This document shows positions 16,123-61,402 of a DNA stretch of 64,000 nucleotides, in pieces. The notes beneath the pieces were generated by a model, which did not search any database, was not told the DNA's origin, and worked only from the letters and a program-made list of their open reading frames with translations. How positions within the stretch are numbered: the first letter of the stretch is position 1; each line of letters begins with the position of its first letter. The position numbers were made by a program, and so were the translations under genes. The DNA is from Chiloscyllium plagiosum (taxonomy: Eukaryota), in contig NC_057721.1 of the NCBI RefSeq assembly GCF_004010195.1, positions 43,702,163 through 43,766,162 on the forward strand, in the 5' to 3' direction.

Positions 16123-16183
16123 ATGATGTCTTCCTATAGCATGTCTTCACAATGTAGCTTCTTTCTACTGATAGCTGTCTCTG
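16123..16183 (+). CDS. Gene A exon 1, signal peptide (MMSSYSMSSQCSFFLLIAVSG)
   Basis: ATG at 16123 with in-frame ATGs at 16126 and 16141; hydrophobic FFLLIAVS; donor G|GTAAGA; 61 nt, the same length as the gene B leader exon. Confidence 0.85.
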
Positions 16184-19100
16184 GTAAGATAAATCAAATT
16201 GAAAATTTTTTAAAAGTTGAAAATAATTGTTTTCAAGCATGTGACTTTTTTGTATTATAATAATTATCATTTGTTTTCTGTTTATTCTTAGGATGGTTTC
16301 TTGTAGAAACTAATGAGAATGTAGAGGATGTTTACAGCGAACCAGGGAGTACAGTACTTGTAAATGTTTGCAATCAAAGCTTCAATACTGAAAATGACTT
16401 TATGTGGTTAAAAGGGAGCTCACAAATAGTTGCACGATACCGAAATGGTTCTAAAGTGTATGGAAAATTTATCAATAGAGTTGAAGCTTTTTCAAATGGC
16501 ACGCTGAAATTTAACATCACAACAAAAGATGATGAAGGAGAATACAAATTCGAAGTACATAACAACGAGGGAAAACTTCAATGCAGTCGAGATTTTAAAT
16601 TGCATTTACTCGGTAAGTTTTTGAAAAAATAGTTTCTGTAGTTTTAAGAAATTTTAAAATTGCCTCGAGAGTTGTAATTTCAGGATCTCTAGCTTTCCAG
16701 ATCTGCACCTCTGAGTATCTGATAGGGAGCAATTCATGTTCAACACTGATCTGATGTGCTGCCACTATTCTTGTCCTGCTATAGATTGTTACAGTGGTTT
16801 GTTGTCACACTTGATTCTGTCTGTCTTTTAATATTTTATTAATCCTTTAAAGGCATTGGATTATGTGGTGAGCAGTAGGCTATTCCATTCGAATAAAAAT
16901 TTAAAAAGTGAGTTATTGTAAACTTATAAGTATTGGGTCAATAGGGATAAACTATTGACCCAATAGTTTGTGTATTATTAATTCTAAACAAAAGTAGAAA
17001 TTGCTGGAAAAGTGCAGCAGGTCTGGCAACACCTGTGGAGAGGAATCAGAGTTAATGTTTCGGGTCGAGTGACCCTTCCTTAGAAACAGCAACTACAGTT
17101 CTCTTGGTTTTTATTTAGTATTATTAATCATTTTTACATTTAGTTTGATTTTCTTTTTCATTAATCTTCCTAAATGAATTTCAACCCCAATGTTCTTCTT
17201 GAGAGTAAAAGCAAAGTATGGCAGATGCCAATGATCTGGAATACAAACAGCAGGTACTGGAGAAACTCAACAGGTGTGACAGTATCTGTAGAAAATGAAG
17301 CAGCGCTAATGGTTTGAGTCCAGTATGACTTTTCTTCCGAAGTTATCCCAGCATTTCATGTTCTTCTTGGGAATGTTAGCACATGACATGAACAATAGAA
17401 GACGTAATCTCAGATCCATTTTATATGAGAACAAATGTGAAAGCTGTTCCAGTGTTATTATAGGTGTCAGCTAAATTTATCCATCACTGTATACATGATG
17501 CCTCTTGGGTCAAAATTCTTGTACATGTGCAACTCAATCCTCAGAGACATAAGTTGCAAATTTGGGAAGCGGCTTGTTTTGGCATTTCTGTAAACACTTT
17601 TCATATTCAATTATGGTGCATCATATTAATTTCAAGTGTGTGACAGCTTGACAAGGCTGCAAATGGATGACCTCAGTCCCAGCCTGGTTTGAGATGTTAA
17701 CAATGGTTTCAGAAAGAAGTCAACAAAACTTTCACCTTTTCAGAAGAAAAATCTTGGATGACTCAAAAGTCATACACCTGTTCATAGTTTCTATATTTCA
17801 AAATATAGGGCAATTATGATATTTCTAATCATGTGGAATAAATATTTTAGATTATAGTTTGAATACTTAATGTAGACATTAGAAACTTCAGAAAGTTTCA
17901 GAGGAAAAATGGCACATCAAATAGTTTCAGTTAAAAACATTTTTAAAAATATTTTGATTATACGGTTGCAAAAAAGCTACCCAGTGACTTTGTTCCACAA
18001 TAAATTGGCAATATCATCTATACTATGGCAATGACTATTGACACCAGGCCACAATTGACCAAGTATGCATCAAGAAGCAGACACAAAAATGTAGTTAACG
18101 CAAATTAGGAGGACTAATCTTTGCTGTTTGAGTCATACTTGGCGTAAAGCATACATGTGGTTGTTGTAGATAGTCATCTCAACTCAGGACATATGTGCAG
18201 GAGTTTTTCAGGATAATGTCCTTAGCCCAACCATCTTCAGCTGCCTTAGCAATGACCTTACCTCCATCATAAGGTCAGATGTGGGAATGTTTACTGATGA
18301 TTGGACAATGTTCAGCACATTTGTGACTCCTCAGATGTGAAACAGTCCATGCCCAAATGCAGCAAGACGTGAACAATATCCAAGCGTAGGTTGACAAGTG
18401 GTAAGAAACATGAATGCCACACAACTGCCAGAGATGCACTGCAGAAATTTACCAAGGTTCCTTACACAGCACCTTCCAAACCATTACCCTTTAGAAGGAC
18501 AAGGACACCAGGTATGTGGAAACACCACCACATGCAAATTTCTCTCCAAGCCACTCAACATCCTGATTTGGAAATGTAGCACCATTCCTTCAGTGTGGCT
18601 GGGTTGAAATCCTGGAATTCCCTCCTTAATGGCATTATCGGTCTACCTAAACCAAGTAGACTGCAATTATCAAGAAGGCCAGTCACCACTACTTTTCAAA
18701 GGCAACTGCAGTTAGGCTGTAAATACTGGCCAGCCTGGGATGCCTATGTCCCAACAGTGTGTTAATCAAAAAATATGTTTTCATAGAAAATTCAATAAAT
18801 GTGGACATAATGATTTTTAACAGGGAAAGACAAGAATTGTGATAAAAATATGAAAACAGGAAATCAGAATGGTATAAAATTATAATAATATTTAGATTCA
18901 GATGGATTACTTGATTACTTCAGTGAGAATTTGTCTTGCTGATATCAAAACCCCAGTAATAGCATATAAATAATTCCAAACATCTAAAAGGATTTATTGC
19001 TATTTTAGAATGACCCGTAAACAATTTGTACAGAATTTCCACTTTTTTTTTTCTTTTTTAGAGAAACTATCAACACCGGTATTGAATATTACTTGTGTAT

Positions 19101-22100
19101 CTGAGCGAGATGTGTTCATGTCATGTGAGGTTCGTGGAGGGATTCCATTTAACTTCTATTTGAATGACCAAAAACTTACTGAAGACAATGCTGTGTTTTC
19201 ATCTGATGGAAAGAAGGCTACACTGAAGAATTCTACCTCAATATTTGGCAATAAAACATTCTTTTGTAAAATTGAAAATCCAGTTAGTAAAATCCAGACT
19301 GCTCCAAGAGAACTTACCTGTGCAGGTAAGTATAAAGCAATGTTCTGTGACTTCCTTTAGTAAAGACAATATGGTTGCAAATTTAAAATCAAAATCTTAT
19401 AAATTAAATTTGAAACTACATTTGATAGATTACATTAATTTCAGATCACCTTTGCAAATATGAATAAATAGGCTCAGGGAATATGATGGTTGTAAACCTT
19501 TAAAATTATTTCCAATATTTTCAGCCTTTAGAAATAGCAGGGGGTGCAGGAACAGGAAGATAGCCAAGGAATTAATGGAGTGAAAAGCAATGCAATCTAG
19601 AACAATAGATCCATTTAGGATATTTGGTCGATATGGATGATTTGGACCAAAGGGTCTGTTTCCATGCTGTGTACCTCTATTACTGTATGACTTTGTAAGT
19701 AATAGAATCTATTGGTAATAAAATACACCATATGACCCTTTTCTCTGACAGCTAACAGTGTAGCACTGTTGCTTGAATGAATGCACTTAGCCTCCCCTGT
19801 TCAGGTGAGGCAGCTTGCTTCATTTGTCGGGAGTTGATTTCCAGTAAATGCCATCTTCAGTTTTTGGCATAGTTGTAGTTCTTGCTTTTTTGGAAAAAGT
19901 TCTATTTTCTGTTGAGCTGATGCATTGTTTTCATAAGGAAAATGCTGTACCTGAAGATCATTTTAAAACAAAATGCCTGTCAATTTCTTCCCGTGTTTCT
20001 GCAAAGCAGACTAAGTTTTATGTATTACTGATTGTGGTTGACATGGTGCTTTCATGCTGTAGTGATCAACTTGCAGGAAATTCTGTACCATTGGGGCACC
20101 TTCCTTTGAGTGTTAGTGCCAAGAACTAACATTCACAGAAGAGACTGTCCTGCCAAATACATGCAGATCTTGAAACTGTTTACAGTTAGCTAGGAGAAAG
20201 TGAGGACTGCAGATGCTGGAGATCAGAGCTGAAAATGTGTTGCTGGAAAAACGCAGCAGGTCAGGCAGCATCCAAGGAGCAGGAGAATCGACAATTCGGG
20301 CATGAGCCCTTCTTCAGAAATGAGGAAAGTCTGCCAAGCAAGCTAAGATAAAAGGTAGGGAGGAGGGACTTGGGGGAGGGGCATTGGAAATGCGATAGGT
20401 GGAAGGAGGTTAAGATGAGGGTGATAGGCCGGAGTGGGGGTGGGGGCGGAGAGGTCAGGAAGAAGAATGCAGGTTAGGAAGGTGGTGCTGAGTTCGAGGG
20501 TTGGGACTGAGACAAGCTGGGGGGAGGGGAAATGAGGAAACTGGAGAAATCTGAGTTCATCCCTTGTGGTTGGAGGGTTCCTCGGCGGAAGATGAGGCGC
20601 TATCCTGTTTAATATCTTGAACTATTATGCCCTATGTATTCACTGAGTGTGTCTGTTAATTCAGGCCACAGTGTTCTGGTTGGGTTGTTCTGGGAAATTG
20701 GCAGGGAGTGTTCTGGAAAAATTCAAACTGCTGCCTACTCCATGCATTCTCACAAGAAAACAATTGAGATAGTTTCATCAAAAATGGAACAATCAGCTTC
20801 CAAAGATGCTAATGTGAGGTGCAATACCCAGGATAAATAACAAGGCTGAAAGTTAACTACATGGTTGACTGATCATTGAGTGTACTCAAGATTTAAGACC
20901 ACAATCAATCCCTTAAATTTAGCTCAACACCTTAGAAATCAGTAGGAGAAACCTGAAATAGGTACATGTCTATTTCATTTTCATTCCTAATGTTACCAAT
21001 CATGTCTTATTGAATTCTTTATCAAATTTATTGTTCTTTATTTTTCAAGTGATGTTAAAAAGCATACAAGAAGGATTTTGTATATCTTTAATGAATAGTT
21101 TATAAGGCATTAATATTCTGCACTGCAGTTCTAGGGCATATTCCAAAGCTGAGACCCACTGTAGATGACTTCTGTTCTACTCTGACAAGCATTCCCCTTG
21201 TACATAAACATCCTTTTTAAAAAAATGTTGATATCCCAAACTACGTAAATTAATAATGCATTGATCTCAGGAATTCTGTGGTAATCAACAAAATGCTATT
21301 CTGTCATATGTGTGATTAGCTGCATGCTGTCATTGCAACTCTCTGCGATTAAAAAAGGCCAGATATTTTCAACCTGTTGCCAACCTGTTGCATGAGGACT
21401 GTTCACAATGACTGGGCAGCAGAAATCAATGGCCAAGAAAGCAGTCCATCAAAGCATCATGGACCATGAAGGACACCACAAGGCACAAACAATGCCATAG
21501 TCCCCACAACAGTCAAAAATGTCTTCAGAAGCAAAGGTTCACTATGCTACTGAACCTAGGAATCTGCAATTGGGAGAGTATGATCGCTCATTTGCAATGG
21601 TTCTCCCATTTTAAAAGCATTCTTGCACAGGTTTTTGAAAAATACATCATCTCTGTCTTTCTTCTGATGTCCTGGAGTAACAGGGGCATGGTGAAATGAC
21701 AGGTGGAGGAGATGACTAGAGGTCATGGAACAGACCTGCTCTCACAGGTGATCCTTGGGCCAATGGCAATTCGAATTCTATCCCTAGAGCAGGAGATGAG
21801 TTCAGCAGCATCCAGGGCAACTGGAAAGTACCCTTCAAGACAGTAATGCCCTATTGCTGACAGCAGGATTTAGAAAATGTACCCCAAACATCTGGTCAGC
21901 TTACCGCAGCTAGCAGGTCATCTGCTAGGTGGCTAAATAACAGCAAAATCAGAGAAGCAGAATGAACCTGGAATATCTAGACTCTATTGGACAGAAATGG
22001 TACAACAAGACCTGAGAGGAGAGCAGCTCTCACAGCCAAAAACCAGCATGGCAGTGCATTGATATTGGTTACACTATGTAAGACAGGCTTGCTGGTAAAG

Positions 22101-25100: not shown

Positions 25101-28100
25101 TCTGGGACACCCGCATTAATCAACCCCACCACCCCATGGACAAACATTTCAACTCTCCCTCTCACTCTGCCGAGGACATGCAGGTCCTGGGCCTCCTCCA
25201 TCGCCACTCCCTCATCACCCTATGCCTGGAAGAAGAACGCCTTATCTTCCACTTCAGAACCTTCAACCCCAGGGCATCAATGTGGACTTCACCAGTTTCC
25301 TCATTTCCCCACCCCCCACCTTATCCCAGTTCCAACCTTCCAGCTATCCCCCTATTGCACACTCAGCTACCTTCTCCCCAGCCCCAACCCCCTCCCATTT
25401 ATTTCTCCACCCCTGAAGCTCCCAGCCTCATTCCTGATGAAGGGCTCTGGCCTGAAACGTCGATTTTCCTGCTCCTCGGATGCTGCCTGACCTGCTGTAC
25501 TTTTCCAGCAACACACTCTCAGTACTTCTGTCCAGACGTGCCTTTTAGCATCGACACAAAGCTAGGCAGCTTGGTTGTGAGCAGTCATTGTTCGAAGGGG
25601 TAGATGTGTTACTCTATAGCACTGTGCTTTGTCAGTTCGAACCTTGTATGCACCAAATGCACTACATGTGGTTCAAAGAAAAAGCCATGTCTCAAAGTCT
25701 AAGGGGAATAATCCTCAGTTAAATCAAGGGAGATAACCTTCAGGCAGGGGGTGCTGGCATGGTAAGTCAAAAGTATCTTCCAATGTCAGTCCTGGGCCTT
25801 GGGCATGGTTAGTTGGCTGCTCAGGATGGTTATTCTCCTTCTCGTGGGTGTGTTCACACCTGTGTCTCTAACCACACTGGCCAGGATCTTGTGCAAAATC
25901 TGAAACTTTTGGAAAATTCACCGAAGTTCTATTTGTCAATGATTATGCTCTAATCAGAAAACAAGCGTTTTGTGTACTGTGATTGACAGACTTTCAGAGA
26001 AATCAAAGCTATTTGGATTGACCATTAGTCTTGGAAAAATTGAGGTTCTGTACCATCCCTTGTCAAATTGCAATGCTATTCAATTAGACATCACCATATA
26101 TACTGGTAAGGCAGACATTTAATGGCAAACCTGGAAACTCCGGTTTTATTTTTTGCATTAAAAATGAAACTGCCTTTCAAAGATATTATTAAATGTACAT
26201 GTTGGTATGTAATGGGACTTCCAGCAGCAGGTTGTGATGGTGATGGAGAGGCAAGGGAGCTGAGCAGTTCTCTACAACCCCTACCAGTCGAGGGAGGACA
26301 GATGGAATAATTAAATGGACTCTGACTGGGAAAAGTAAGAATGTCTTTGGTTGATGGGAAGGAAGAGGAGACATATAAAGTAATTCCATAGCTCAATGTA
26401 ACCCACATGTACATAGTCCTAGAGGCATACATCGTAGATACTGGCCCTTTAGCCCATTGTGTGTGTACGCTGACCAACAAACACTAAATTATCTTAGTCC
26501 CATTTCCCTCCACTTGCTCCATAGCCTACTATGCCCTGGTATTTTAAGTGCTCACCCAGATGTTTCTTAAATGTTATGAGAATTATCTGCCTCTCCCACT
26601 CTCTCGGACATCTCACATTTGCGTCACACTCTGCATGAAAAGAGGACTTCCTCAGATCCCCATCTATTTCAGTAAGGCGTTCAACAAGGCTCCCCATGGG
26701 AAATTGATTAGCAAGGTTAGATCTCATGGAATACAGGGAGAACTAGCCATTTGGATACAGAACTGGCTCAAAGGTAGAAGACAGAGGTTGGTGGTGGAGT
26801 GTTGTTTTTCAGACTGGAGGCCTGTGACCAGTGGAGTGCCACAAGGATCGGTGCTGGGCCCTCTACTTTTTGTCATTGACATAAATGATTTGCATGCGAG
26901 CATAAGAGGTACAGTTAGTAAATTTGCAGATGACACCAAAATTGGAGGTGTAGTGGACAGCGAAGACGGTTACCTCAGATTACAACAGGATCTGGACCAG
27001 ATGGGCCAATGGGCTGAGAAGTGGCAGATGGAATTTAATTCAGATAAATGCGACATGCTGAATTTTGGGAAAGCAAATCTTAGCAGGCCTTATACACTTA
27101 AGGTCCTAGGGAGTGTTGCTGAACAAAGAGACCTTGGAGTGCAGGTTCATAGCTCCTTGAAAGTGGAGTCGCAGGTAGATAGGATAGTGAAGAAGGCGTT
27201 TGGTATGCTTTCCTTTATTGGTCAGAGTATTGAGTACAGGAGTTGGGAGGTTATGTTGCGGCTGTACAGGACATTGGTTAGGCCACTGTTGGAATATTGC
27301 ATGCAATTCTGGTCTCCTTCCTATCGGAAAGATGTTGTGAAACTTGAAAGGGTTCAGAAAAGATTTACAAGGATGTTGCCAGGGTTGGAGGATCTGAGCT
27401 ACAGGGAGAGGCTGAACAGGCTGGGACTGTTTTCCCTGGAGCGTCAGAGGCTGAGGGGTGACCTTATAGAGGTATACAAAACTATGAGGGGCATGGATAG
27501 GGTAAATAGACAAAGTCTGTTCCCTGGGGTCGGGGAGTCCAGAACTAGAGGGCATAGGTTTAGGGTGAGGGGGAAAGATATAAAAGAGACCTAAAGGGCA
27601 ACTTTTTCACGCAGAGGGTGGTACGTGTATGGAATGAGCTGCCAGAGGATGTGGTGGAGGCTGGTACAATTGCAACATTTAAGAGGCATTTGGATGGGTA
27701 TATGAATAGGAAGGGTTTGGAGGGATATGGGCCGGGTGCTGGCAGGTGGGACTAGATTGGGTTGGGATATCTGGTCGGCGTGGACGGGTTGGACTGAAGG
27801 ATCTGTTTCCATGCTGTACATCTCTATGACTCCATGACTCTAAACTACTCACTTTAAACTTATGCTTTCTGGTCTTAGACATGTCTTCCATGGGGAAAAT
27901 ATTCTCACAATCACTTTAATTTCTCTGCCCCCTCACCCATTCAAACATTCTTCTCACTAAACTGACTGCACTCAGTGCTCTCAGATCCAACCCTGACTTT
28001 GTCATCAAGTCTGCTAGCGAGGTTGGTGCTGTTATTGTTTGGTGGACTGACCTCTACATTGCAGAGGTTGAGAAACAGCTCGCAGACACTTCCTCATATC

Positions 28101-31100
28101 TCCACCTAGACCCTTATGCAACCATTGAAATTCAGGAAATGGTGAACACAATCCCTTTACATGTCTATCCCCTTCAGGATGGTCTCAGGACTCTCTGTGT
28201 CTTCGTAGAAGAAGGGTCTGAACTATGCCCATCCACCACTGCCCACCTCCGCCTTACCGAGCTCATCCTCACCCTGAACAATGTCTCCTTTAACTCCTCT
28301 CATTTTCAGTCAAAGGGGTGGCCATGATACTCATATGGGCCCCAGTTATGCCTGTTTCTTTGTGGGATATGTGGAACATTCCTTTTTCCAATCCTAATCT
28401 CGACCCCACCCACAACTCTTTTCTAGTACATTGACGACACTATCGGTGTGGCTTCTCTCTCTCGTCTGGAATTGGAAAAGTTTATCTATTTCACTTCCAA
28501 TTTCCGTTCTGCTCTCACCTTCATGTGGTCCATCTCTGACTCCTTCCTTCCCTTCCTCGACATCTCTGTTTCCATTTCTGGGGATAGACTGGCCACCAAA
28601 ACCACAACAAACTCACGGACTCCCACACTGGAGTATACTTCACGCACCCTACTTCCTGTAAAAGCTCTATTCCATTCTCCTCGTTCTTCCATCTCCATTG
28701 CATCAGTTCTGATGATGCCAGCTTTTGCCAGTGGGCCTCAGAAATGTCAATTTTTCCTCAATCAAGGATTCCCCACCACTGTGCTTGACAGAGCTCTTAG
28801 CTCTGCCTGACCCATCTCCCACACTTCTGCCCTCACCCCTTCTCTTCCCTCCCACAACAGTGGTTCCTTTATTCATCACTTACAATCCCACCTACATCCA
28901 TATCCCAAGGATCATTAGCCTCCAATTTTGCTACCTCCAGTGGAAGCCACCACCAGACAAATATTCTCCTTCCCTCCTTTGCAGGCCTTCAACAAGGACC
29001 ATTCCTTCCAGGACACCCTGGTCCAATCCTCCCAGCTGAGATGAAGTGGATGGTGGAGGAGTTGAAACTGGCAATGTCTATGAAGGAAGCTGAAATTGTT
29101 GAGGGATTATTGGAGGCTCAGGTATTGGCAGAACGAATTGGCCTCTTTAAGCCAAACCTTGCAGAGGCTCCCCATGTGCATCCCATTGCTCCTGCAGAGA
29201 AAGGAGTGGTACTTGTTGATGAGTGGGAAGCTGGACAGATTTAGATGAAGACCAGAAATACCTTATATAGGAACTGAAGACCAAAATGAGGATGCTTAGC
29301 TGTTTATGGCATCTAGAAATCTCAGTGCTTGTCAGCAGGCAGCGTTTGTGATTGAACATCTATTCAGAAATGCCCATCAGGAAATACTGGGAAGTGGTAC
29401 AGATATTCTGTAGGTTATTGAGGATGGCAATAGCCTGATGCATATACAGCAGAGGTTTTATGTAACAGTCTCGATTAGAATGGTGCTGGAAAAGCACATT
29501 CTGGTGAAAGGCTTTTGCCCAAAACGTCGATTTTCCTACACCTCGGATGCTGCCTGACCTGCTGTGCTTTTCCAGCACCACTCTAATCTAGACTCTGATC
29601 TCCAGCACCTCTGTCCTCACTTTTGCCTAGTCATTTTGTGTAAACATACATGCAAAAGTTGGGGGGAGTCTAGTTTCTGTGTACTGTCTTGGGACTGGTG
29701 AAGTTGTTTGTTTGCATTGTTCTCCTGGATCCCTCCTTTCAAATGACTAGAGACAGAATAATAAGGACTGCTGAGCAGGAACAGTAAGGGATGGGAATAT
29801 CCAAATACAGCAGAGAAGACTTAACAGTGGCAAACTTTAATCATCTCTCTAGGAAGCATAAGATCACATTATTGGCATCATGGAGAGAGACTGGATTCCT
29901 AAGACCATGAAAGAAGGTCCCAGGGAGTTGGCTGTTGGCACAGTTGGGGAAGTTGATCTCAGGCAGAAAGGCAGGCAGAGTTGATTGTTACCCAGCAGCC
30001 ACCGGACCAACCCTTGCTGTCCTATCTCCAAAGTTAGTGTCATGGCTGATACTGCTCAAGGGACACTCTAAAGAGGAACTGCAATTGTGAAGTGTCAAAA
30101 AAGTTTACATTCACCTTTCAGAATGACATTTCAAACGAGACTGCCTGCAATGACTCGTGCCAGCCCCTATCCTGTGCAATGGCCGTCTCTTCTCAACAGG
30201 CGTTAAACTACTCAGGCATCCCACTGAGTGCTAGGTAGCGGGTGAGATTCCTTTAGGAGGAGGCTGTCTTATATACAGTAATGGGGACTTGCCCTGCAGT
30301 GAGTGCAGAATTTGGCAAGGTAGAAACATTGCACCTAAATGACAGCAGGAGCAGAGATTTCAACCATGCCTCACCAGATTTTCTGTGAGTGTATGTGAGC
30401 CTGATTGATATTGTTCCCACATCCGAGTCTCTGTTTTGCAGGTGTTGGACATTCCTTATCATTGCTATATTGAGCTCTCCCTGTATGTGCTCAATTACAC
30501 TGTAGGTTAGGCCATAGCTGGAGCACTATGTGCAGTTCAGGTCACCACATTATACGAAGGATATAATTGCATTAGAAGGGTGCAGAGAAGATTCCCTAGG
30601 ACGTTGCCCGGGAATAAGCATTTTAGCCATGACGAGAGGCTGGATAAACTCAGGTTGTTTTCTTCAGAGCAGAGAAAACTGGGAGGGGACCTAATTACGA
30701 TATATAAGATTATGTGGAGCATGAACAGATTGGTTAGAAAGCAGCTCTTCCCCTTAAGTTGAAGTGTCAACAATATGATGGTACAATTTTAAAATGAAGG
30801 GCAGAGATTTAGAGGGAATTTGGAGAAAAATCTTTTCACCTAGAGGGTTGAGGCAATCTGGAATGCACCACCTGGGAGGATAGTACAGCTGGAAAGCATA
30901 TTTGATGAGCATTGAAATGTCACAATGTTCAAGGCTACGTGGTAAGTGCTGGAAATTGGGATTAGTGTGAATAGGTTGCAGCAGACCTGCTGGGATGAAG
31001 GCCTTCTTCTGTCCTCTAAAACTCTATAACTATTGCTGTGGTTCTGTTCGCCGAGCTGGAAGTTTTTGTTGCAAACGTTTCGTCCCCTGTCTATGGGAGC

Positions 31101-34100: not shown

Positions 34101-35796
34101 TGGACAGATCTCAGGACTGATCTTGGCCCAAACCCTTGACTGACTGATAATGACAATCCTGACTGATGGTGGACCAGAACCCTGAATGATCACTGCGCAG
34201 CTTCTGATTTATTTATTACTGAACCTTGATTCATTGGACTCGACCTGCAGGATGGTCTATTGGGCATCCCCGGATTGTAGTGAGATGGAATTCCTGACCA
34301 TGATTATCTCAAGCAACTGAACAGACCCTTTCAAGCCTCTGGATATGTGATCTCCTTCACTGATTGTGGCTTCACCCTCTGACTGACCAAAGCTCCCTTT
34401 GACTAAACTAGGGAGGCTCTCCTTAGAATTTGAATCATAGTCATTTGGTTGAAACACATTCAGTGTGTTTGCTTTTCAAAGTTGATGACACATGCTGCAA
34501 CTGATCTACCTCTCTGTCTGTGCTAAAAGGCAAGGTAAGACAGACAGGCCATAAGTTCTGAATAAAGCAATAATGTGCAAGAAATGCAAGACAATGTGAA
34601 GATGCAGTGAGCATCCATGCAAGTATAAAGTGAGAAAGCACTACAAAAGCAAGCAAAGAGCCTTAGATGCAGCCTATTCAAATAAATGAGATGAGTTCCT
34701 GTCCCTGTATGCAAAGTGGCCTTGTAATGAAACATGTCCAAAGTGCAGTATTGAAGGAGCTGAACTATATTATAGGTATTCATTTCCCAGCCCTATATTT
34801 TGACTATTGAACCTGTGCTGACATGCTACTGCACACGACTGGGGTAAGTGACAGTTGAATCTGGGCTGCCTCACTCAGAGTTATAAAACTACCACTGTGC
34901 CACAGGAGTCTGATTTTCACACAGATTGCTAAACAACCTCTGCTCCTAATCTATTTATAGCTATTGTAAATGCACGTAGTCCCTGTCCATGGACATACCC
35001 TGGGATGTAGGGAATTATGGCCGGAGTAGGTGCTGGTGAGTTGCCAGGTAACCACTCTGACCTTCAGATCAGGAATTGGGGCCATCCATTTCTCTCTGCC
35101 ATGTGGGAAAACAGCAAATTGCATACAGATAAAGCAAGCTTAGTTAGTAATGAGATATTAATGCATGAAACAGACCCCTCACCAATCTCTGACGAAATTC
35201 TAAGCTCGCCATTGCAACCTTGAGTGGAAAATCTGACTTTTTTTCTCATTATTGAGAATGTCATGTTTGCATTCATGCTGTATTTCCCAGCTGTCTTTGC
35301 AATTGCCTGCATTGTTCAGGGACTGGGAAAATTCTGCTTAATATTTCTTTTCAAATGTAATAGCTCAAATTTCCTGGAAATGAGCTACTCTGCTGTGACA
35401 CCTTTTCAAAAATGTTTGGCCTGATTTCAAGCCTGTCTGCACATAGGAACATGTAAGGTCGAGAGGTTAAATGATGGTAGGTACTTACATGCTGCATTTC
35501 CAAAAAGTTTGGGTTTGCTGTCATTTTAATTGTTTGGATACTGACAGCATTAGTGCCATGTAGCGGAGGGAGGTACCCAGTCTCATTAACATTAAAAAGT
35601 TGGATCACTTACAGCTTTGTTCAAAAAAAGCCTCATTTTTTGTATGTTCTCATCATGTCTCTTTGTTTCCTTTCTTACTTTAGGTACAAAAGAAGGTCAT
35701 CATTATGTGCAGGTTATTATTGTTATTCTGGTGGTAGTGGTTGGACTGATTATTCTTGTGGGCGTGGCATATTGTTTTTTTCAGAAAAGTCTTTAA
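16123..35796 (+). CDS. CD2-family IgSF membrane protein, gene A (CD2/CD58-like; 4 coding exons 16123-16183, 16292-16612, 19062-19325, 35684-35796; 252 aa as assembled)
   Basis: All three introns are GT-AG and phase 1. Exon lengths 61+321+264+113 = 759 nt give one open frame: signal peptide, IgV lacking the canonical disulfide, 4-Cys IgC2, TM, stop. This matches CD2/SLAM family architecture. Confidence 0.88.
16292..16612 (+). CDS. Gene A exon 2, IgV domain, CD2-like
   Basis: Acceptor tttattcttag|, donor G|GTAAGT, 321 nt. Reads ...DVYSEPGSTVLVNVC...DFMWLKG...ARYRN...FSNGTLKF...DDEGEYKFEVHNNEGK...FKLHLL, recognisably parallel to human CD2 domain 1 (DIKWEK...AQFRK...FKNGTLKI...DDQDIYKVSIYDTKGK). 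Confidence 0.93.
16985..17360 (-). mobile_element. Two Penelope-like terminal fragments in gene A intron 2
   Basis: attgctggaaaagtgcagcaggtctggcaacacctgtggag and gcagatgcc...ctggagaaactcaacaggtgtgacagtatctgtaga. Confidence 0.65.
18100..18770 (+). mobile_element. CR1-group LINE family B 3' part, internally deleted
   Basis: PTIFSC..NDL.SIIRS.VGMF.DD motif and the characteristic 3' UTR (aaatcctggaattccctcc). Confidence 0.82.
19062..19325 (+). CDS. Gene A exon 3, IgC2 domain with four Cys
   Basis: Long poly-T acceptor ending ttttag|, donor CAG|GTAAGT, 264 nt. EKLSTPVLNITC...MSCEV...FFCKIENPVSK...ELTCA matches the CD2 domain 2 pattern (ERVSKPKISWTC...LTCEV...FKCTAGNKVSK...VSC). Confidence 0.93.
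20192..20600 (-). mobile_element. Penelope-like element 3' end
   Basis: Minus strand ERLIFRRGTLQPQGMNSDFSSF (GIY-YIG C-terminus), C-rich UTR and terminal repeat. Confidence 0.88.
23880..24624. mobile_element. Possible solo LTR interrupting the RTE element
   Basis: About 740 bp of non-RTE sequence starting TGTGA and ending TTAACA; no clean target-site duplication. Confidence 0.3.
25035..25520 (+). mobile_element. Penelope-like element 3' end (GIY-YIG plus terminal repeat with hammerhead motif)
   Basis: LYIGETGRLLAERFKEHL...HFNSPSHSAEDMQVLGL...LEEERLIF. Confidence 0.92.
25430..25465 (+). ncRNA. Minimal type I hammerhead ribozyme motif (Penelope-associated)
   Basis: CTGATGA (25434-40), stem II gggc/tctg/gcct, GAAAC, GTC; stem I is weak. 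Confidence 0.55.
26415..26660 (-). mobile_element. Diverged CR1 3' end
   Basis: Minus-strand TFKKHLGEHLKYQGIVGYG and CR1 3' UTR. Confidence 0.75.
26665..27840 (+). mobile_element. Young CR1/HER1 LINE, 5'-truncated, about 310 codons of RT still open
   Basis: FSKAFNKAPH...[14 protein letters not shown]...[10 protein letters not shown]...LEYCMQFWSP; ctatgactccatgact tail. Confidence 0.96.
27950..29035 (+). mobile_element. Penelope-like RT fragment, degenerate
   Basis: SNPDFVIKSA..GAVIVW.TDLYIAE, KGVAM.THMGPSYA..FVGYVEHS and YIDDTIG motifs. Confidence 0.88.
29465..29630. mobile_element. Palindromic Penelope-terminus derivative
   Basis: gattagaatggtgctggaaaagcaca ... tgtgcttttccagcaccactctaatc inverted arms around a decayed hammerhead. 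Confidence 0.8.
30495..31034 (+). mobile_element. Diverged CR1 3' end
   Basis: ERLDKLRLFSSEQRKLGGDLITIYKIM. Confidence 0.85.
31035..31801. mobile_element. Compound Penelope-like insertion (two minus arms and one plus arm) with a 15-bp flanking duplication
   Basis: Arms about 31033-31278(-), 31401-31530(-) and 31530-31801(+); REFLEAWHSSTNSINKHIDLDPIY GIY-YIG tail; aactctataactatt at 31020-31034 and 31802-31816. Confidence 0.88.
31687..31728 (+). ncRNA. Minimal type I hammerhead ribozyme motif with intact core
   Basis: gca-CTGAGGA-t-gtc.acct(agac)agg.g.gac-GAAAC-GTT-tgc; stem I gca/tgc. Confidence 0.65.
32527..32614 (-). repeat. 88-bp inverted local copy of 30716-30803
   Basis: 86/88 identical by eye to the diverged CR1 copy 1.8 kb upstream. 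Confidence 0.9.
33165..33858 (+). mobile_element. Solo LTR
   Basis: TGTTAT...GTAACA inverted termini; AATAAA near 33731; no clear TSD. Confidence 0.65.
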
Positions 35797-35819
35797 CATC
35801 ATCTGGAAGACAAGGGGAG
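35684..35819 (+). CDS. Gene A exon 4, transmembrane exon (stop TAA 35794-35796 as assembled; donor after 35819)
   Basis: Polypyrimidine acceptor tttcttactttag|. The phase-1 frame gives GTKEGHHYVQVIIVILVVVVGLIILVGVAYCFFQKSL*. Strong donor GAG|GTAAGT at 35819/35820. Confidence 0.85.
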
Positions 35820-36260: not shown

Positions 36261-36358
36261 CAGACAGAACATATATGGCCCATGTTTAATTCTAGAGAAC
36301 GGTATTCATTGAATTACATTCTGTAACAATTCTTTTTATTTCATTTATTTTTTTCCAG

Positions 36359-36620
36359 CTGGGAATCAGTGAAGAAGTGGGCATTAAAATGCAATTATGC
36401 AGTGCAACAAAGTGGACTGAGGGAAAAAAGTCTATTTGAATAAGCAACTGACCTGCAAGATTTTCAAGTGTTTGACTGGTGGCTTTGCAGAATTAAATAC
36501 AATCAACAATCCATAAATGTTTTTTCACAATTGAACAGAACCATCTGGTACATCAATTTGAGTCATGGAACTTTTGTCTGTTTTGTAAACTAATATTACC
36601 CTGTTTTATTTTTTAAATTC
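36359..36620 (+). other. Probable last exon of gene A (3' UTR, or a few tail codons); 3' end uncertain
   Basis: Strong acceptor tttattttttttccag| at 36358, 539 nt after the exon 4 donor; non-repetitive AT-rich sequence with ATTAAA motifs follows. Confidence 0.6.
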
Positions 36621-41680: not shown

Positions 41681-41699
41681 CATTAGTTTCCACAGCTTC

Positions 41700-47429: not shown

Positions 47430-50070
47430 GGACATCACTTATTGGCCATTCCTACTTGTCTTTGAGAAGGTGATGGTAAGCTGCTTTCTCAAACCAGCAC
47501 AGTTAATTTGTTATAGTTATACAGAGGAACCTCGATTATCTGAACGAGATGGGCGGGCACTATTTTGTTCAGAAATTTGATTATTCGGTTAATCGATTTA
47601 ATGCCTCTCCTCTAGAGCTCTGAGTTTTCAGTTAAATCCGCTCCCCATTCAGGAGAGTGCAGCACACCCCGTGCAGCAGCACACCGCGCGTGAGCCCCGC
47701 CCCCAACCTGATCCAACATCGCCCCCTGCCCCCCCACCCCCGTCTGCCCCCATCCACTGTCCAACCCCGTCTGCAGCTGCGCCCCTGCCCCCGTGCAACC
47801 CTGCCCATGTCAGCTTCCCTCTCTCCCCGGGGCAGTCGGGCTGCCACCAGCAGGAAGACTGCTGCTGTTTTTGTGGGGTGTCTCCAAGTAGCACGCACAC
47901 ACACAACTTTTTGACAAGTTCCACCTCTGCCCTGTACAGGACAATGGTAGGGAGATTATCTGAGGAAGGGGGGTTTAGGGTTCACCCCTATGTAGAGCTC
48001 CAGGGAAAGTGTTGGCGGAGAGAGAGAGAGGGGAGAATGTCAGTCATTTGGAGACAGTGCCTGGGCTTCCATCAATGTCCAGGACTGTTCTCTGCAGCAT
48101 TTCAGTAAGCCCATTGTAAACAAAAGACACGATCAAGGTTGCAACAGCTCTCTGATGTAATGTTTCTATCGGGACCTTGAGATCTCTTTCGGATAATCCG
48201 ATATTCGGATAATTGATATTCGGATAATCAAGGTTCCTCTGTACCTCTCAATGCCACTAAGAGGTGAATCCTAAGACCCAGTGTTATTCACTCCAAGTAG
48301 CTTGGAGGGGAACCTGCAGGTGGGGTTCCCATGTATCTGCTGCCTTTATCCTGCTGGGTGGAAGTGGTCATGGCTTTGGAAGGTGCTGTCAAAGGAGTAT
48401 AGGTCCATTTCTAGTAAATGGTACATACTGCTGCTGCTGAACATTGACGGTGAGTGGACTGAGTGGAAGCTCGTGGCTATTGTGAAAATTGAGCAGTCTG
48501 CTTTGAGTTGGATGGTGCTAAGCTGGAGATTCAGTCACTCAGACAAGTGAGGTATATTCCATCCCACTCCTAACCTTTGCCTTGTAGATGGCGGACAGGC
48601 TTTGGGAAATGAGTTACTCACTTTAGGTTTTCTAGTCCCTGACTTTCTCTTAGAGCAGCTGTATATATAAGACTAGTCCAGTCAGTTTCTGGTAAATGGT
48701 CACTCCAGGATGTTCGTAATGAGGGAATTTAGTGACAATGATGATGCATGGTGGTAATTGGATTCGCTTTTGTTGGAGATGGTCATTGCCTGGCATTTCT
48801 GATGTGGAAATGTTACTTGTGATTTGTCAACCAAAACTTGGAGATTGTACAGGTCTCGCTGCATTTAGAAATTGACTACTTCACTATCTGAGCAGTTCCA
48901 AATAGTGCTAAACACTGTACAATCATCTGTGAACATCCTGACTTTTGAGTTTATGATGAAGGGAAGGTTAATGATAGTTGGGCCTAGGACACTACCCTGG
49001 GGAAATCCTGCAGAAATGCCCTGGAGTTGAGATGACTGACCTCCAACAACCAAAACCATCTTTCTTTGTCCTAGTTATGAGTACGACCAGATTCCAAACT
49101 CACTCCAGTTTTGCTAGCATTTCTTGATGCCACATTCAGTCGAATGCTGCCTTGATGCCAAGGGCTGTCACTCTCACCCCACCTCTGGAATTCAGCTCTT
49201 TTGTCCATGTTTGAACCAAAGCTGTAATGAGGTCAGGAGCTGAATGGACTTGGCGGCATCCAAACTGGGTGTCAATGAGCAGGTTATTGCTGAGCAGGTG
49301 CTGCTTGATAGCCCTGTTGATGACACCTTCCACCACTTTACTGATGAGAATAATTGTTGGGGAAGTAATTGAGCAGGTTGGAATTTCCTGCTTTTATGGC
49401 ATAGGACATACCTGGGCAATTTTTCTCATTGTTAGGTAGATGCCAGTGATGTAACTGTACTGGGACAGCTTGACTAGGGGAGTGGTAAGTTCTGGAGCAC
49501 AAATCTTCAGTACTCTTGCCAGAATGTTGTCAGGGCCCATAGCCTTTGCAAGACACTGACACTGTTTCTTCATTACATGTGGAATGAATTGAATTGGTTG
49601 AAGACTGGCACCTGTGATACTGGAGACCATTGGAGGAGGCCGAGATGAATCATCCACTTGGCATTTGTTGCTAAAGATTGATGGAAATGTTTCATCTTGA
49701 TCCTTTGCACTGATGTGCTAGATTCCCCCATTGTTGAGATGGAGATTTTCATGTAGGCTCCAACTCCTGTTAACTATTTAATTGTCCATCACTATTTATG
49801 ACTGGATGTGGCAAGAATGCAGAGCTTGGATCTAATCAATTGGTTGTGAATTGCTTAACCTATCTATCACTTGCTATTTTTGTCGTTTTGCACATAAGTA
49901 TTCTATTTTGCGACTTCATCAGTTTTACACCTCATGTTTTGGTATGCCTTGTACTGCTCTGACATGCCGTCCTGCAATTTTAATTGAATCCTGGTTGATC
50001 CCCTGTCTTGATGGCAATGGCAGGTTAAGGGTTATGCTAGGCCATGAGGCTGCAGATTATGTTGGAGTAT
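47430..50070 (-). mobile_element. CR1-group LINE family B, split by the Tc1/mariner MITE
   Basis: HSAPDLITALVQTWTKELNSRGGVRVTALGIKAAFD and AGFPQGSVLGPTI...MFTDDCTVF. Confidence 0.88.
47522..48241. mobile_element. Non-autonomous Tc1/mariner (Tigger/pogo-like) element, 720 bp
   Basis: TIRs CAGAGGAACCTCGATTATC / GATAATCAAGGTTCCTCTG; TA duplication on both sides; subterminal cggataat repeats; GC-rich core. Confidence 0.92.
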
Positions 50071-55603: not shown

Positions 55604-55924
55604 AGATTATATTAGATTACTTACAGTGTGGAAACAGGCCCTTCAGCCCAACAAGTCCACACCGACCCGCCGAAGTGCAACCTACACAGACCCATTCCCC
55701 TACATTTACCCCTTCACCTAATACTACAGGCAATTTAGTGCGGCCAATTCACCTAACCTGCACATTGTTTGGACAGTGGGAGGAAACCGGAGCACTCAAA
55801 GGAAACCCACGCAGACACGGGGAGAATGTGCAAACTCCACACAGTCAGTCACCTGAGGCAGGAATTGAACCCGGGTCTCTGGCGCTGTGAGGCAGCAGTG
55901 CTAACCACTATGCTACCGTGCACC
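55604..55924 (-). mobile_element. HE1 SINE, full length
   Basis: A box (agtggttagcac), B box (ggttcaattcc), conserved core and (taatc)n tail. Confidence 0.94.
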
Positions 55925-55984
55925 AAGATCATTGCTGCTAATGTCAACATAATTCAGAGTTCAATTTGCAAACATCATAACTTT

Positions 55985-58140: not shown

Positions 58141-58144
58141 CTGA

Positions 58145-58455
58145 TTGGATTAGATTCCCTACAGTGTAGAAACAGGCCCTTTGGCCCAACAAGTCTACAC
58201 CGACCCTCTGAAGAGTAACCCACCCAGACCCATTTCCCTCTGACTAATGCACCAAACACTATGGTAAATCTAGCATGGCTAATTCACCTGACCTGCACAT
58301 CTTTGGACTGTGGGAGGAAACTGGAGCACCCGAAGGAAACCCACGCAGACACAGGGAAAATGTGCAAACTCCACACAGTGACCCAAGGCTGGAACAGAAC
58401 CTAGGTCTTTGGCACTGTGTGGCAGCAGTGCTAACCACTGAGCCACCATGCCACC
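58145..58455 (-). mobile_element. HE1 SINE, full length
   Basis: ggtggcatggtggctcagtggttagcactgctgcc head, core and tail. Confidence 0.94.
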
Positions 58456-59132
58456 ATTGTTGGAGGTCAGTATCCAAAGTATCCTTGGTGCAACCATTAA
58501 ATACTAACGTCTGGTGTGTGCTTCAAATGAAACAATGGAGTCTATGCTTCCTCAACAGCCTGCTGGTGTATTGATGAGGTGTCCTGATGGTCACAAGAGT
58601 AGGGTAGGTGCGAGATGGCAATGTCTGTGGGTAAGTGGTGTGTGGAGCTGGTTCTCGTGGAACATGCCCTGAGCCACAATTTAGTCTTAAGTGACATGGA
58701 GTTCATTTGGAGCAAGTGGTGATCTGAATCTGCCAGGTACCTGCTGTTTTCCATTTCAAGCTTTCTTGACATCTACCTTGTTTAGAAAGTTAGGCAAGTA
58801 AGAATGCTGAATATTAATGAGGTAATTTGGGCTATCTAATGAAGAGTAATCCCCCTTAGTCGGCCTAATGAGAAACTCACTTCATCATTTGTCAAAAAAA
58901 TGAAAAAAAGTGAAAACACCCAGCATTGAGATGGACATTGTCAGACTTCTTCTCTGACTGTCTCAAACCTCATCACAGTCCATGCAGCTCAGTTCCCTAC
59001 AAGATTCTGTGCCAGATTTCAGACCAGCACCCTAATGCCACAGAGGCAAGTTGTTGGAGAGGAATATCTGAGTGTCAGCAGCAAGTCTGCAAGAGTGTCC
59101 CTATGCCTGTGAATAATTGGCAATATGTGGAT

Positions 59133-59320
59133 GAGCTGAAAATGTGTTGCTGGAAAAGCGCAGCAGGTCAGGCAAGGATCTTGCAAGGATCCTCTTGCAA
59201 GGATGCCTTCCTTGAAGAAGCTCTCTTCCTCCCTCTACAAGGTGCCTGACCTGCTGTGCTTTTCCAGCAACACATTTTCAGCTCTGATCTCCAGTATCTG
59301 CAGTCCTCACTTTCTCCTCC
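59133..59320. mobile_element. Fold-back Penelope-terminus derivative
   Basis: 42-bp inverted arms 59133-59174 and 59243-59284 with 1 mismatch. Confidence 0.88.
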
Positions 59321-59684
59321 AACATGTGGGTGAGGAAGACGACTGATTCCCTGGAAATTCAGTGTGCATAGTAAAAAAGTACTTTGAAAATACAGTAGTG
59401 AAATTATTTTCTTCCTTATCTATGCAAAGTTCATACTGCAGTCTTTTCCTTTTCCTCTGTTGAGCACGGATGCCTGCCAAACTCTCCACATCTACAAAGA
59501 ACTATATGCTACATATAACCCCTCTTGCTGATGCAGATACAGCCCTGTTCAGTTTTTACCCCTTCCCTTCTGCTTAGTGCTACATATCACAAATCTATCT
59601 TTAACATACACAGCAGTTCGAGCCCTTTCCTACCATTCAGAGCTGCCTGCCTATCATGGGCCGTCCCTTGCACTCAGAACCGCC

Positions 59685-59819
59685 TAATATATCCCTCTGT
59701 TTCCTTTTCCCCTCCCACCCAGAAGTGAGCTACTTACATCAATTTCTTTATTGTAAAAGACCTTCTTGTTTAAGTAAACCTGTTTCAAACACTGGCATAA
59801 CAAGCAAAATTCAGTCAAA
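59685..59819 (+). promoter_or_regulatory. Putative proximal promoter of gene B
   Basis: atccctctgtttccttttcccctccc about 120 nt upstream of the ATG; cagtc shortly before the ATG, as in gene A. Confidence 0.3.
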
Positions 59820-59880
59820 ATGCTTTGTCATCGAAAATGCTCACTACAGCTTGATGTAATTTTTCTTCTAGCTATTTCAG
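59820..59880 (+). CDS. CD2-family gene B exon 1, signal peptide (MLCHRKCSLQLDVIFLLAISG)
   Basis: aaaATG at 59820; hydrophobic VIFLLAIS; donor CAG|GTAAGG; 61 nt, phase 1, paralogous to gene A exon 1. Confidence 0.82.
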
Positions 59881-61087
59881 GTAAGGATATTTGATTTTCA
59901 TGCATTTTTAACTTTATGTATTCAGTTCTATGAGGATATTCTTAACTTTTTCAAAGTATAAGCAGGTGGTACTGTTCAGTTAACCATTATACCAGCACCT
60001 GATTTTTCATTACATTTAACTCAATGGACAGCTGCTTTGACATCCATGGCTGTATGTAATCATCAAAATGTTAAATTATTCTTATAAATATTCTTATAAA
60101 TTATGTTTAATCAATCCTGTTCTCATTTGTCATGACACACTGAGTCTTGAACCCAGACTTTCTACCCTAACAATAGGGAAAATCTTTCCTTATATATTTA
60201 ACTTCCAAATAAACTCTGGAAATTAGAGTTCATTTAATTAATTGTAAATTAGGTGTGTTTTTTTTTATTGTATCAGCTGCTGCTACGAATATTTATTATA
60301 TTTAATCAAATATTTATTTTGTATCTTTTGCTGTTATTGACAATGCTGTAGTACATTCTATGTTGTGAGTGCATGGCCAAAAGCTAAAATAGCCAATATT
60401 CACAAAGATGTGTGTGGGCAAAAGATACATTAATTATATCTTCTCAATATAAATTCCTTCACATTCAATGTTTCATTCAAAATTTTAGATTAATTACTTC
60501 TAAGAGATTATAACAATTACAATTTTTACTTTTGGACATTAATAATACTGATTTCTGATGAAAATATCGCTGACACAACAGTTTTGCCAGCTTGTCCTTC
60601 TTGGAAACAAGTCAATACACTGGGGCAGGTCTAATGATATAATATCTGATCTATTGTAAGCAGATTTGACAGGATCTTAGCTACTATTAATAATTCATTC
60701 TAAAAGGGTGAAACCATTATGGCACCTGGGAATTTTCTCAATCAGTTGCATGTAACCATATAAACTAATGTCCTTAGTCCTAGCTCACAAGCAGTGTGAA
60801 CTTGCCAGTGCTTTGTGCTCTCAGACTCTGAGATTTAGCTGCTTAAACTTGAGCAGTAATTAATTCTGTACATATTTTGAGTTCTCTATGCCTTGAATCT
60901 TTCATGCTCAGCCAAAACCCCTTGGATAGGTTACATCTAATGTCTGCAACTATCAAAGGCTAACTGATATTCTTTAGTATCTTGGATTAGATACTCAAAC
61001 TTGATGATGGGTTTCCTTGTATGGCAGAGACAAAATTGACCAAAAACAAATGAATACATTTAAACAATTTTATCTTTCAATTTACAG

Positions 61088-61402
61088 GTTTGTTTCTTGC
61101 AGAAAGCAAGGGTAAGGCAACAGATGTTTATGGAGAAATTGGAAAGTCGATATTTTTACATGCTAAGAGTGAAAGCTCTAAAACTGATGACATTAAATGG
61201 ATGAAAGGAAATTTAATGATTGCACGATACAAAAATCAAATTTCTAGATCCTATGGGAGTTATATCAATAGATTTACTGTTTACGCAAATGGGACCCTGA
61301 CATTTAAAATCATGAATAACAGTGAAGGAACATATCACTGTGAAATATACAGTACAGATGGAAAGCTAAAATCTCTCCAAAGCATTCAACTGCATGTACT
61401 TG
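61088..61402 (+). CDS. CD2-family gene B exon 2, IgV domain (gene continues beyond the window)
   Basis: Acceptor tttacag|, donor G|GTGAGT, 315 nt. GLFLAESKGKATDVYGEIGKSIFL...DDIKWMKG...IARYKN...YANGTLTF...EGTYHCEIYSTDGK...IQLHVL; DDIKW is identical to human CD2. Confidence 0.93.

Follow-up and report, generated by a model that had tools for sequence, protein, structure and literature searches.

Results

Two CD2-family genes at the locus

We analysed a 64-kb stretch of Chiloscyllium plagiosum DNA (the window) and found two CD2-family genes on its plus strand, gene A with its ATG at 16123 and gene B with its ATG at 59820. They lie 43.7 kb apart, as an earlier note on this DNA had stated (two same-strand genes about 44 kb apart). 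The features are as follows.

16123..16183, plus strand: gene A exon 1, signal peptide, 61 nt, phase 1, GT donor; matches NCBI protein P0001
16292..16612, plus strand: gene A exon 2, CD2-type IgV, 321 nt; supported by Pfam V-set, PDB CD2 and P0001
19062..19325, plus strand: gene A exon 3, 264 nt, IgC2 with four Cys (139, 149, 196, 214) and unusual conservation in the shark A-type proteins
35684..35819, plus strand: gene A exon 4, stalk, uncharged TM helix, tail of about 6 residues, TAA at 35794-35796
36359..36497, plus strand: gene A candidate untranslated last exon
59820..59880, plus strand: gene B (CD2) exon 1, signal peptide, 61 nt, phase 1, GT donor; matches P0003
61088..61402, plus strand: gene B (CD2) exon 2, IgV, 315 nt; matches P0003

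No gene besides A and B was found in the window. With tblastn and hmmsearch a third CD2-family copy was not detected in the 64 kb; the total was two V exons, one C2 exon and one TM exon, so that the larger array suggested earlier was not borne out within the window. The 16 kb upstream of gene A and the interval between the genes held no further CD2-like copy or relic, and no IGSF3-like exon was present in the interval. An Ig domain was found in none of the 59 other long stop-to-stop frames of the window. Two of these 59 frames were RT relics. A Pro-rich frame at 47602-48105 was ruled out as a tail exon of gene A: it has no Pfam match and lies inside an element (47520-48243) with 25-nt terminal inverted repeats.

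Gene A encodes an almost tailless two-domain protein

Spliced by its coordinates, gene A gave P0001, a complete protein of 252 aa with a V-C2-TM layout. The V exon matched Pfam V-set (E 1.2e-6), was 100% identical to P0001 and had CD2 as its top PDB match. Its two cysteines, Cys47 and Cys118, are both variable among the A-type proteins. The TM helix has zero charged residues and six residues follow the best TM window, the stop lying right behind the membrane, which agrees with the earlier description of gene A as almost tailless. A GT donor follows position 35819, 23 nt beyond the stop. The candidate last exon has a pyrimidine tract and an AG upstream of 36359, and ATTAAA occurs at 36383 and 36492.

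A run of seven T (35775-35781) lies just 5' of the stop, and another frame is open through to the donor. An assembly slip was rejected as the source of the tail loss, as the proteins of R. typus, H. perlo and M. asterias stop at the same place. The S. canicula A-type record, unlike these three, fits a shifted frame at the tail. The AlphaFold model of gene A was poor (pLDDT 55) and a fold search with it was uninformative. The NCBI name of gene A is HepaCAM, which looks like an automated misnomer because the orthologs of four other named species are called CD2-like.

Gene B is the C. plagiosum CD2

The leader and V exons of gene B correspond to residues 1-125 of P0003, and its C2, TM and tail exons, located past the end of the window, are known from that protein. 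Gene B is the CD2 of C. plagiosum. P0003 has 400 aa with a tail of 158 aa, in line with the earlier view of a CD2 with a signalling tail. The V domain contains a single Cys. The gene B model matched rat CD2 over 170 residues (Z 17.7, rmsd 2.3) and human CD2 with Z 16.6. Adhesion-residue positions were transferred via sequence alignment to CD2, and five of the six (D32, K34, K43, R48, Y86, G90) were kept in gene B, with K43 lost, as compared to three in gene A and three to five in A-type V domains. The CD2-like adhesion residues claimed for gene B were thus confirmed.

Arg makes up 21% of the gene B tail, Glu 16% and Pro 8%. The tails of all four shark CD2s were similar (Arg 21-23%, Glu 15-16%, Pro 7-8%) and were not Pro-rich like those of mammals, which argues against a mammal-like tail but not against orthology. 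Arg recurred at period 3 in gene B (16 of its 24 Arg, a level reached in none of 2000 shuffles). The CD2 tail adaptor motif PPLPRPR (PMC5990624) was absent in its exact form from the shark CD2 tail. PxPxPR (as PIPGPR) was found in three of four orectolobiform CD2s, and a C-terminal RGP-aliphatic-P-aliphatic-P motif in 7/8 rows. The ITSM TxYxxV/I was found in none of the four B-type tails, gene A having no tail.

T clusters of nurse shark have been marked by 'Cd2' under the whale shark annotation (PMC10529500), and this annotation names the gene A ortholog CD2-like too. Single-cell 'Cd2' counts in sharks may therefore combine genes A and B, gene A carrying the label 'HepaCAM-like' or 'CD2-like'.

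Comparison of the two genes

The leader exons had been described as identical 61-nt phase-1 exons. Length and phase agreed, both with GT donors; sequence did not (28/61 nt, 6/20 aa). A match of 28/61 was reached by 18 of 10000 shuffles, indicating that the leaders are homologous although equal in length only. The V exons were 38% identical in protein (40/106, E 2e-24; 204/311 in DNA), within the 35-40% proposed for paralogs, and CD2 was the best match for both genes. The old duplication in the CD2 family proposed earlier was supported. Heavy glycosylation, put forward as a distinction of gene A, failed to separate the two: seven N-sequons were counted in gene A and six in gene B (3-7 in six A-type proteins, 5-6 in five CD2s).

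The V face of CD58 is acidic and complementary to CD2. An acidic face of this type was found in none of the six A-type proteins at 15 mapped positions, their net charge being +1 to +3 (6/6) as compared to -2 to +2 in CD2; these charges are alignment-based, with no reliable structural model of gene A. The faces of A and B are thus similar rather than opposite in charge, which weakens a CD58-like electrostatic match.

On human V domains, gene A scored 32.4 bits against CD2 and 18.5 bits against CD58. The shark CD2 profile scored CD58 at 23.8 bits, so the resemblance of gene A to CD58 does not exceed that of shark CD2. Grouping with SLAMF had been named as a result that would speak against a CD2 origin, and neither gene grouped there: the shark CD2 profile gave SLAMF6 19.7 bits versus 99-102 for CD2, and the gene B model gave NTB-A Z 13.6 versus 17.7 for CD2.

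Orthologs in chondrichthyans

Gene A was present in C. plagiosum, R. typus, S. canicula, M. asterias and H. perlo and in record P0010, and no second A-type protein was returned for any named species. The A-type tails were 5-20 aa long (6/6) versus 94-163 aa in five CD2s. For V, identity was 41% between A-type proteins and CD2 and 57% among A-type proteins; for C2, it was 30% and 73%, respectively. The gene A C2 domain was 26-30% identical to CD2s, and the four C2 cysteines (two disulfides) were invariant in 7/7 aligned rows. Invariant positions were more frequent in C2 than in V, both in A-type proteins (42/87 vs 24/95, p 0.002) and in CD2 (26/80 vs 17/93, p 0.035). The higher conservation of the gene A C2 could indicate a cis partner instead of a trans ligand. 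The H. perlo A-type V domain was 62% identical to CD2-type P0015, which exceeds its identity to four of the five other A rows.

A separate chimaera A-type protein was not seen among 32 of 150 matches or in 7/7 matches of another search. Chimaera P0159 is a separate CD2-V paralog, 62% identical to chimaera CD2, with Tyr motifs and a paired-receptor layout, which indicates that CD2 duplicates recur by lineage.

Phylogenetic analysis

Trees were based on about 90-100 columns per domain and included no CD58 sequence. Teleost row P0120 was left out of the later V and V+C2 trees as its 3.25-long branch had landed inside A, and P0039 and P0159, which have no C2, were used in the V tree only. The rows that we took for the teleost CD2-like (cd2f) group carry Tyr motifs in their tails and form a C2 clade of their own.

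In the V tree all six A-type domains, seven elasmobranch-type CD2 and one V-only fragment formed a clade (support 100/96) with Callorhinchus CD2 outside. A chondrichthyan CD2 V clade excluding A was rejected (p-AU 0.029), in a test that was set after viewing an earlier tree. Monophyly of the A-type V domains was compatible with the data (p 0.083), and the V domain of P0010 clustered with two CD2-type rows (93/88). Judged by these sequences, the V exon of gene A postdates the chimaera split.

In the C2 tree A fell inside a CD2-type clade (96/93). A was sister of bony-type CD2 rows in the free C2 tree (82/86), with chimaera and elasmobranch CD2 on one side (78/73), and a grouping of A with elasmobranch CD2 was acceptable (p 0.28). 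In the V+C2 tree A was a single clade (100/99) inside a chondrichthyan clade (89/86), and a position of A outside all CD2 was also acceptable (p-AU 0.19 and 0.36). A duplication predating the chimaera/shark split was thus rejected by V (p 0.029), but not by C2 or V+C2, in trees with no CD58 rows. With chimaera CD2 as sole outgroup, A joined the crown of elasmobranch CD2 in both domains (CD2 stem 0.03 and 0.00). The stem between A and CD2 was 0.03 (0-0.16) substitutions per site for V and 1.30 (0.85-1.92) for C2, with 60 bootstraps each, so a duplication within elasmobranchs needs a strong burst in C2.

Discussion

Origin and role of gene A

The structure of gene A, the loss of its tail, its conservation and the ancestry of its V exon are shown by the data. 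From these we infer that the whole gene was rather probably duplicated in the elasmobranch lineage after the chimaera split. Whatever its origin, a role as a putative CD2 ligand has nearly an even chance. Having neither a tail nor a charged TM residue, gene A would not signal alone, and a surface counter-receptor is the most likely function. Our tentative overall reading, held at somewhat less than even, is that gene A arose from CD2 by duplication in elasmobranchs, lost its tail and became a non-signalling counter-receptor. The V domain of gene B would bind a ligand across the cell contact, and the gene B tail may recruit SH3 adaptors via short Pro motifs flanking the Arg/Glu repeat. Gene A would have arisen as a tandem copy of CD2, lost its tail via a stop just behind the TM helix and had its C2 remodelled and then strongly constrained. 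It would bind CD2 V-to-V across the cell contact, performing the job of CD58 or CD48 with a separate origin.

The short tail and intact two-domain ectodomain of gene A are also the usual ligand layout, as in human CD58 and CD48, which counts against a putative non-signalling decoy or cis modulator that competes for the ligand of CD2 or of a pathogen, or that forms a cis pair with another receptor via C2. This role seems rather unlikely, even though A-type V domains keep three to five adhesion residues and a basic face, conservation is much higher in C2 than in V, the TM helix is uncharged and P0159 provides a CD2-V paralog with Tyr motifs and a paired-receptor layout. As for origin, the C2 domain, distant from CD2 yet strongly conserved, would also suit an old gene, possibly of the CD58 lineage, with a V exon overwritten through gene conversion by the adjacent CD2 up to roughly the time of the shark/ray radiation; A and B would then be the ancestral pair of receptor and ligand, their binding domain homogenised. 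The stems (0.03 in V, 1.30 in C2), the opposite trends in identity, the H. perlo V domain resembling P0015, the P0010 V domain among CD2-type rows and the acceptable ancient placement on V+C2 are consistent with this. However, monophyly of the A-type V domains was not rejected, leaving gene conversion undemonstrated, nor was A with elasmobranch CD2 on C2; no chimaera A occurred among the matches examined, and no IGSF3 separates A and B, unlike the human order CD58-IGSF3-CD2 (PMC8707797). We consider such an origin unlikely. A self-binding ancestor has been proposed for the CD2 family, and V exons homogenised by conversion would make adhesion near-homophilic, close to this ancestor. It is quite improbable that an ancient tandem CD2/CD58-type pair combines such a ligand V domain and near-homophilic adhesion with a separate conserved cis function of C2 and CD2 signalling by Arg triplets.

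The earlier note had favoured an ancestral CD2/CD58 pair, which in its simple form found no support, as the gene A V domain is nested in elasmobranch CD2 and CD58 scored 18.5 versus 32.4 bits for CD2. An unmodified CD58 ortholog, in a pair that predates the shark/bony-vertebrate split, is very improbable: tandem linkage, the short tail and a C2 just 26-30% identical to CD2s would fit, but the V exon, the bit scores and the missing acidic face do not. Zebrafish Cd58 carries a long tail (PMC5990624), which makes a short tail a weak criterion and no CD58 hallmark in fish. CD58 has been counted as 0 in Chondrichthyes, but CD2 likewise (PMC13262535 Table S3), so this count is too insensitive to judge shark CD58. 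The literature covered, mainly from outside subscription journals, contained no account of a shark CD58 or of gene A. Membership of A and B in a large fast-turnover CD2-like array is very improbable; multi-domain CD2-like proteins occurred among the database matches and the view of the locus is limited to 64 kb, but neither a copy or relic in the 16 kb upstream of gene A or between the genes nor a second A-type protein per named species was found, and A forms a single clade. Overall, the locus looks more like a shark-lineage CD2 copy than the ancestor of mammalian CD58.

Among vertebrates with T cells, the lineage of sharks is the oldest, and gene A is a concrete candidate for its CD2 ligand. 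Should gene A bind CD2 and be a duplicate of the shark lineage, tail loss would have produced a CD2 ligand anew, in addition to CD58 and rodent CD48. Should its C2 derive from CD58, the pair would go back to the ancestor of jawed vertebrates and would provide a case of exon conversion between a receptor and its ligand.

Comparison with known systems

The closest sequence for both genes is CD2 (PDB 1hnf, 1hng; nurse shark V9NIT6; Callorhinchus milii), with which they share a V domain without the canonical B-F disulfide and a four-Cys C2. They differ in the shark tail, which is Arg/Glu-rich without exact PPLPRPR, and in the missing tail of gene A. Gene A resembles CD58 (PDB 1ci5, 1ccz) in being a CD2 paralog with two Ig domains, in its linkage to CD2 and, as far as mammalian CD58 is concerned, in its short tail, and the CD58 role is proposed for it by analogy; but it is closer to CD2, has a CD2-type neutral-to-basic face and lies directly upstream of CD2. 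Its C2 has four Cys, as compared to two in zebrafish Cd58 (PMC5990624).

Teleost CD2-like (cd2f) and CD48 offer two further comparisons. CD48 is a GPI-anchored product of a SLAM-locus gene, whereas gene A has a TM helix; CD48 V scored 24-29 bits versus 32-44 for CD2 V domains. The cd2f arrays are lineage-specific CD2-family duplicates, as gene A would also be. Rodent CD48 is a replacement CD2 ligand (PMC13262535) and thus a precedent for another family member in the CD2-ligand role. In contrast to cd2f, gene A is single, tailless and conserved.

Gene models and family assignment

The pair of plus-strand genes, gene A upstream and gene B downstream, is real and already machine-annotated.

Exons of gene A and gene B within the window
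16123-16183, plus strand, gene A leader exon, 61 nt
16292-16612, plus strand, gene A V exon, 321 nt
19062-19325, plus strand, gene A C2 exon, 264 nt
from 35684, TAA at 35794, plus strand, gene A TM exon
59820-59880, plus strand, gene B leader exon, 61 nt
61088-61402, plus strand, gene B V exon, 315 nt

Gene A is complete in the window, and its coordinate-spliced product is the 252-aa C. plagiosum NCBI protein named 'hepatocyte cell adhesion molecule-like isoform X1'. The leader and V exons of gene B encode the N-terminal part (residues 1-125) of a C. plagiosum 'CD2-like' protein of 400 aa. The V domains were found to be 38% identical, in line with the 35-40% that the earlier note had estimated for paralogous V exons. 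It had also described identical 61-nt phase-1 leaders; length and phase are indeed equal, but just 28/61 bases are shared (reached by 18/10000 shuffles). Human CD2 likewise has first exons of 61 and 321 nt. A stretch at 60222-60296 weakly resembles the N-terminal end of isoform X2 of Hemiscyllium CD2 (52% over 25 aa, E 2e-4) and may be an alternative first exon of gene B.

CD2 was the first PDB match of both V exons, and also came first for profiles built from 6 A-type proteins (gene A and its shark orthologs) and 8 CD2-type proteins (gene B and its orthologs), with CD58, CD48 and SLAMF6 scoring far below. Of the AlphaFold models, that of gene A was too poor for use. The gene B model has a confident ectodomain and aligned best with rat CD2 (Z 17.7, rmsd 2.3, 170 residues), followed by human CD2, CD48 and CD58 entries and then NTB-A (Z 13.6).

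Gene A across sharks

Orthologs of gene A were detected in R. typus, S. canicula, M. asterias, H. perlo and one further record, P0010 (52-86% identity), and gene A therefore spans galeomorph and squalomorph sharks. Gene A had been called almost tailless, and all A-type proteins (6/6) have tails of 5-20 residues. An assembly slip was considered for the stop of gene A and is ruled out, since three independent species end at the same position. The stop lies 23 nt upstream of a donor site, within the usual distance for escaping nonsense-mediated decay. The A-type record P0010 continues past this position to a 20-aa tail. In the S. canicula ortholog (P0157) the TM end matches a shifted frame of exon 4 of gene A, and this frameshift is either real or artefactual. 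The TM helix of gene A has no charged residues.

Heavy glycosylation had been read as ligand-like, which does not hold: N-sequons number 3-7 in A-type proteins versus 5-6 in CD2s, and the overlapping counts are therefore no ligand mark. Using the six CD2 adhesion residues listed in PMC5990624, we found 3-5/6 kept in A-type V domains versus 4-5/6 in chondrichthyan CD2; gene B retains CD2-like adhesion residues, as proposed. The mapped V-face charge was +1 to +3 in A-type proteins versus -2 to +2 in chondrichthyan CD2.

Gene B and its tail

Gene B is CD2, an expected gene, with orthologs in C. punctatum (hypothetical), Hemiscyllium, nurse shark (V9NIT6, 'CD2') and Callorhinchus; its type of tail also occurs in three further records. 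The long Pro-rich tail that had been anticipated is long (158 aa) but not Pro-rich (8% Pro, against 21% Arg and 16% Glu). No ITSM was present in it. A PxPxPR motif was found in 3/4 orectolobiform CD2 proteins and a C-terminal RGP-x-P-x-P motif in 7/8 CD2-type rows. Between these motifs Arg stands at every third residue (16/24 Arg in C. plagiosum; 0/2000 shuffles), a period that was clear in 4/7 proteins tested, marginal in the chimaera and absent in two rows. In C. plagiosum this stretch covers about 90 aa, residues 299-390, past the window end; AlphaFold gives residues 303-367 as helix with low confidence. Further features of the shark CD2 tail are a Cys-Cys pair next to the membrane and a tyrosine in an acidic EEY sequence. 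Because a role of PPLPRPR in the CD2 tail is described in PMC5990624, the gene B tail would be expected to recruit SH3 proteins. One CD2-type protein (P0031) has no TM segment, through either a skipped exon or misprediction.

Further copies and other content of the window

In the window, tblastn and profile searches returned nothing beyond the known exons, and neither a third V exon nor a relic nor any other gene was seen. There are 69 stop-to-stop frames of at least 95 aa, and 59 of them were scanned (one with an N-run trimmed off); the remaining 10 were 4 known exon frames, 5 entering the N gap and 1 simple-repeat frame. Among the 59, none contained an Ig domain and 2 matched reverse transcriptase. 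LINE reverse-transcriptase relics lie at 9364-10095 (minus strand) and 26548-27591 (plus strand), SINE copies are numerous throughout, and the assembly gap comprises 261 N at 9369-9629. An element at 47520-48243, with 25-nt terminal inverted repeats enclosing a GC-rich, Pro-rich open frame, is likely a non-autonomous DNA transposon. The third intron of gene A holds nested inverted repeats (31032-31766; 67-163 nt, 93-97% complementarity).

Ancestry and proposed role

Trees were built without a named CD58 and with outgroup rows labelled by tail motif or similarity; of the 150 matches of one search, 32 were examined. In the tree of V domains, built on 32 rows and 96 columns, all A-type and elasmobranch-type CD2 V domains formed one starred clade (100/96), with both Callorhinchus rows outside it. 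Holding chondrichthyan CD2 V together without A was rejected (p-AU 0.029), and A-V monophyly was not (p-AU 0.083). In the C2 tree, with 31 rows over 88 columns, the A-type proteins formed a long-branched starred clade within a CD2-type clade (96/93), with bony-type CD2 rows as weak sister (82/86); A with elasmobranch CD2 was not rejected (0.28). The joined V+C2 tree placed the A-type clade (100/99) inside chondrichthyan CD2 (89/86), and placements outside CD2 were not rejected (0.19, 0.36). With the topology fixed, the stem from A to CD2 was 0.03 (0-0.16) for V versus 1.30 (0.85-1.92) for C2, entirely on the A side.

The history of gene A is a V/C2 mosaic, and two accounts fit it: gene A may have arisen by duplication close to the elasmobranch crown, with a burst in C2, or it may be older, its V exon having been converted. 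We consider the second account rather unlikely. The ancestral CD2/CD58 pair of the earlier note is not supported in its simple form, as the V domain of gene A nests with elasmobranch CD2 V. A plain CD58 ortholog, set beside the CD2-first profiles, is highly improbable. Membership of both genes in a large array, also raised earlier, is very improbable, and the window searches gave no extra copy.

What is established for gene A is its structure, the loss of its tail, its conservation and the ancestry of its V domain. We infer that it would be unable to signal alone and would hold up a V domain resembling that of CD2 on a stalk of two Ig domains as tall as CD2, which would suit a trans counter-receptor of CD2. 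Judged from sequence, gene A is a good candidate for a CD2 ligand, and that it is a shark-lineage CD2 duplicate acting in this way is our tentative reading. A decoy or cis partner, likewise without signalling of its own, seems unlikely.

Invariant columns in A-type proteins were more frequent in C2 (42/87) than in V (24/95; 5 proteins, p 0.002), a trend also seen in CD2, more weakly (p 0.035). The higher C2 conservation of gene A suggests a possible second partner. Its C2 exon (19062-19325) has a long run in the C'-E region that is invariant across sharks. In Callorhinchus milii, P0159 combines one V domain of CD2 type (62% to the chimaera's CD2) with a TM segment and a tail with three Tyr motifs of ITIM/ITSM-like form, and could be an inhibitory CD2 paralog.

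Comparison with known CD2 and CD58 genes

Gene A is a shark-wide tailless CD2 variant that is apparently undescribed in the literature; our search, with most subscription papers outside its coverage, turned up descriptions of neither this paralog nor a shark CD58. Nurse shark T clusters in snRNA-seq are marked by Cd2 under whale shark annotation, according to PMC10529500. The whale shark ortholog of gene A (P0002) is annotated 'CD2-like', and this marker could therefore mean either gene. The portion of PMC5990624 consulted does not mention sharks; it places a long-tailed zebrafish cd58 near igsf3/ptgfrn/ttf2, with cd2 on a different chromosome. In human, a CD58-IGSF3-CD2 block is described in PMC8707797.
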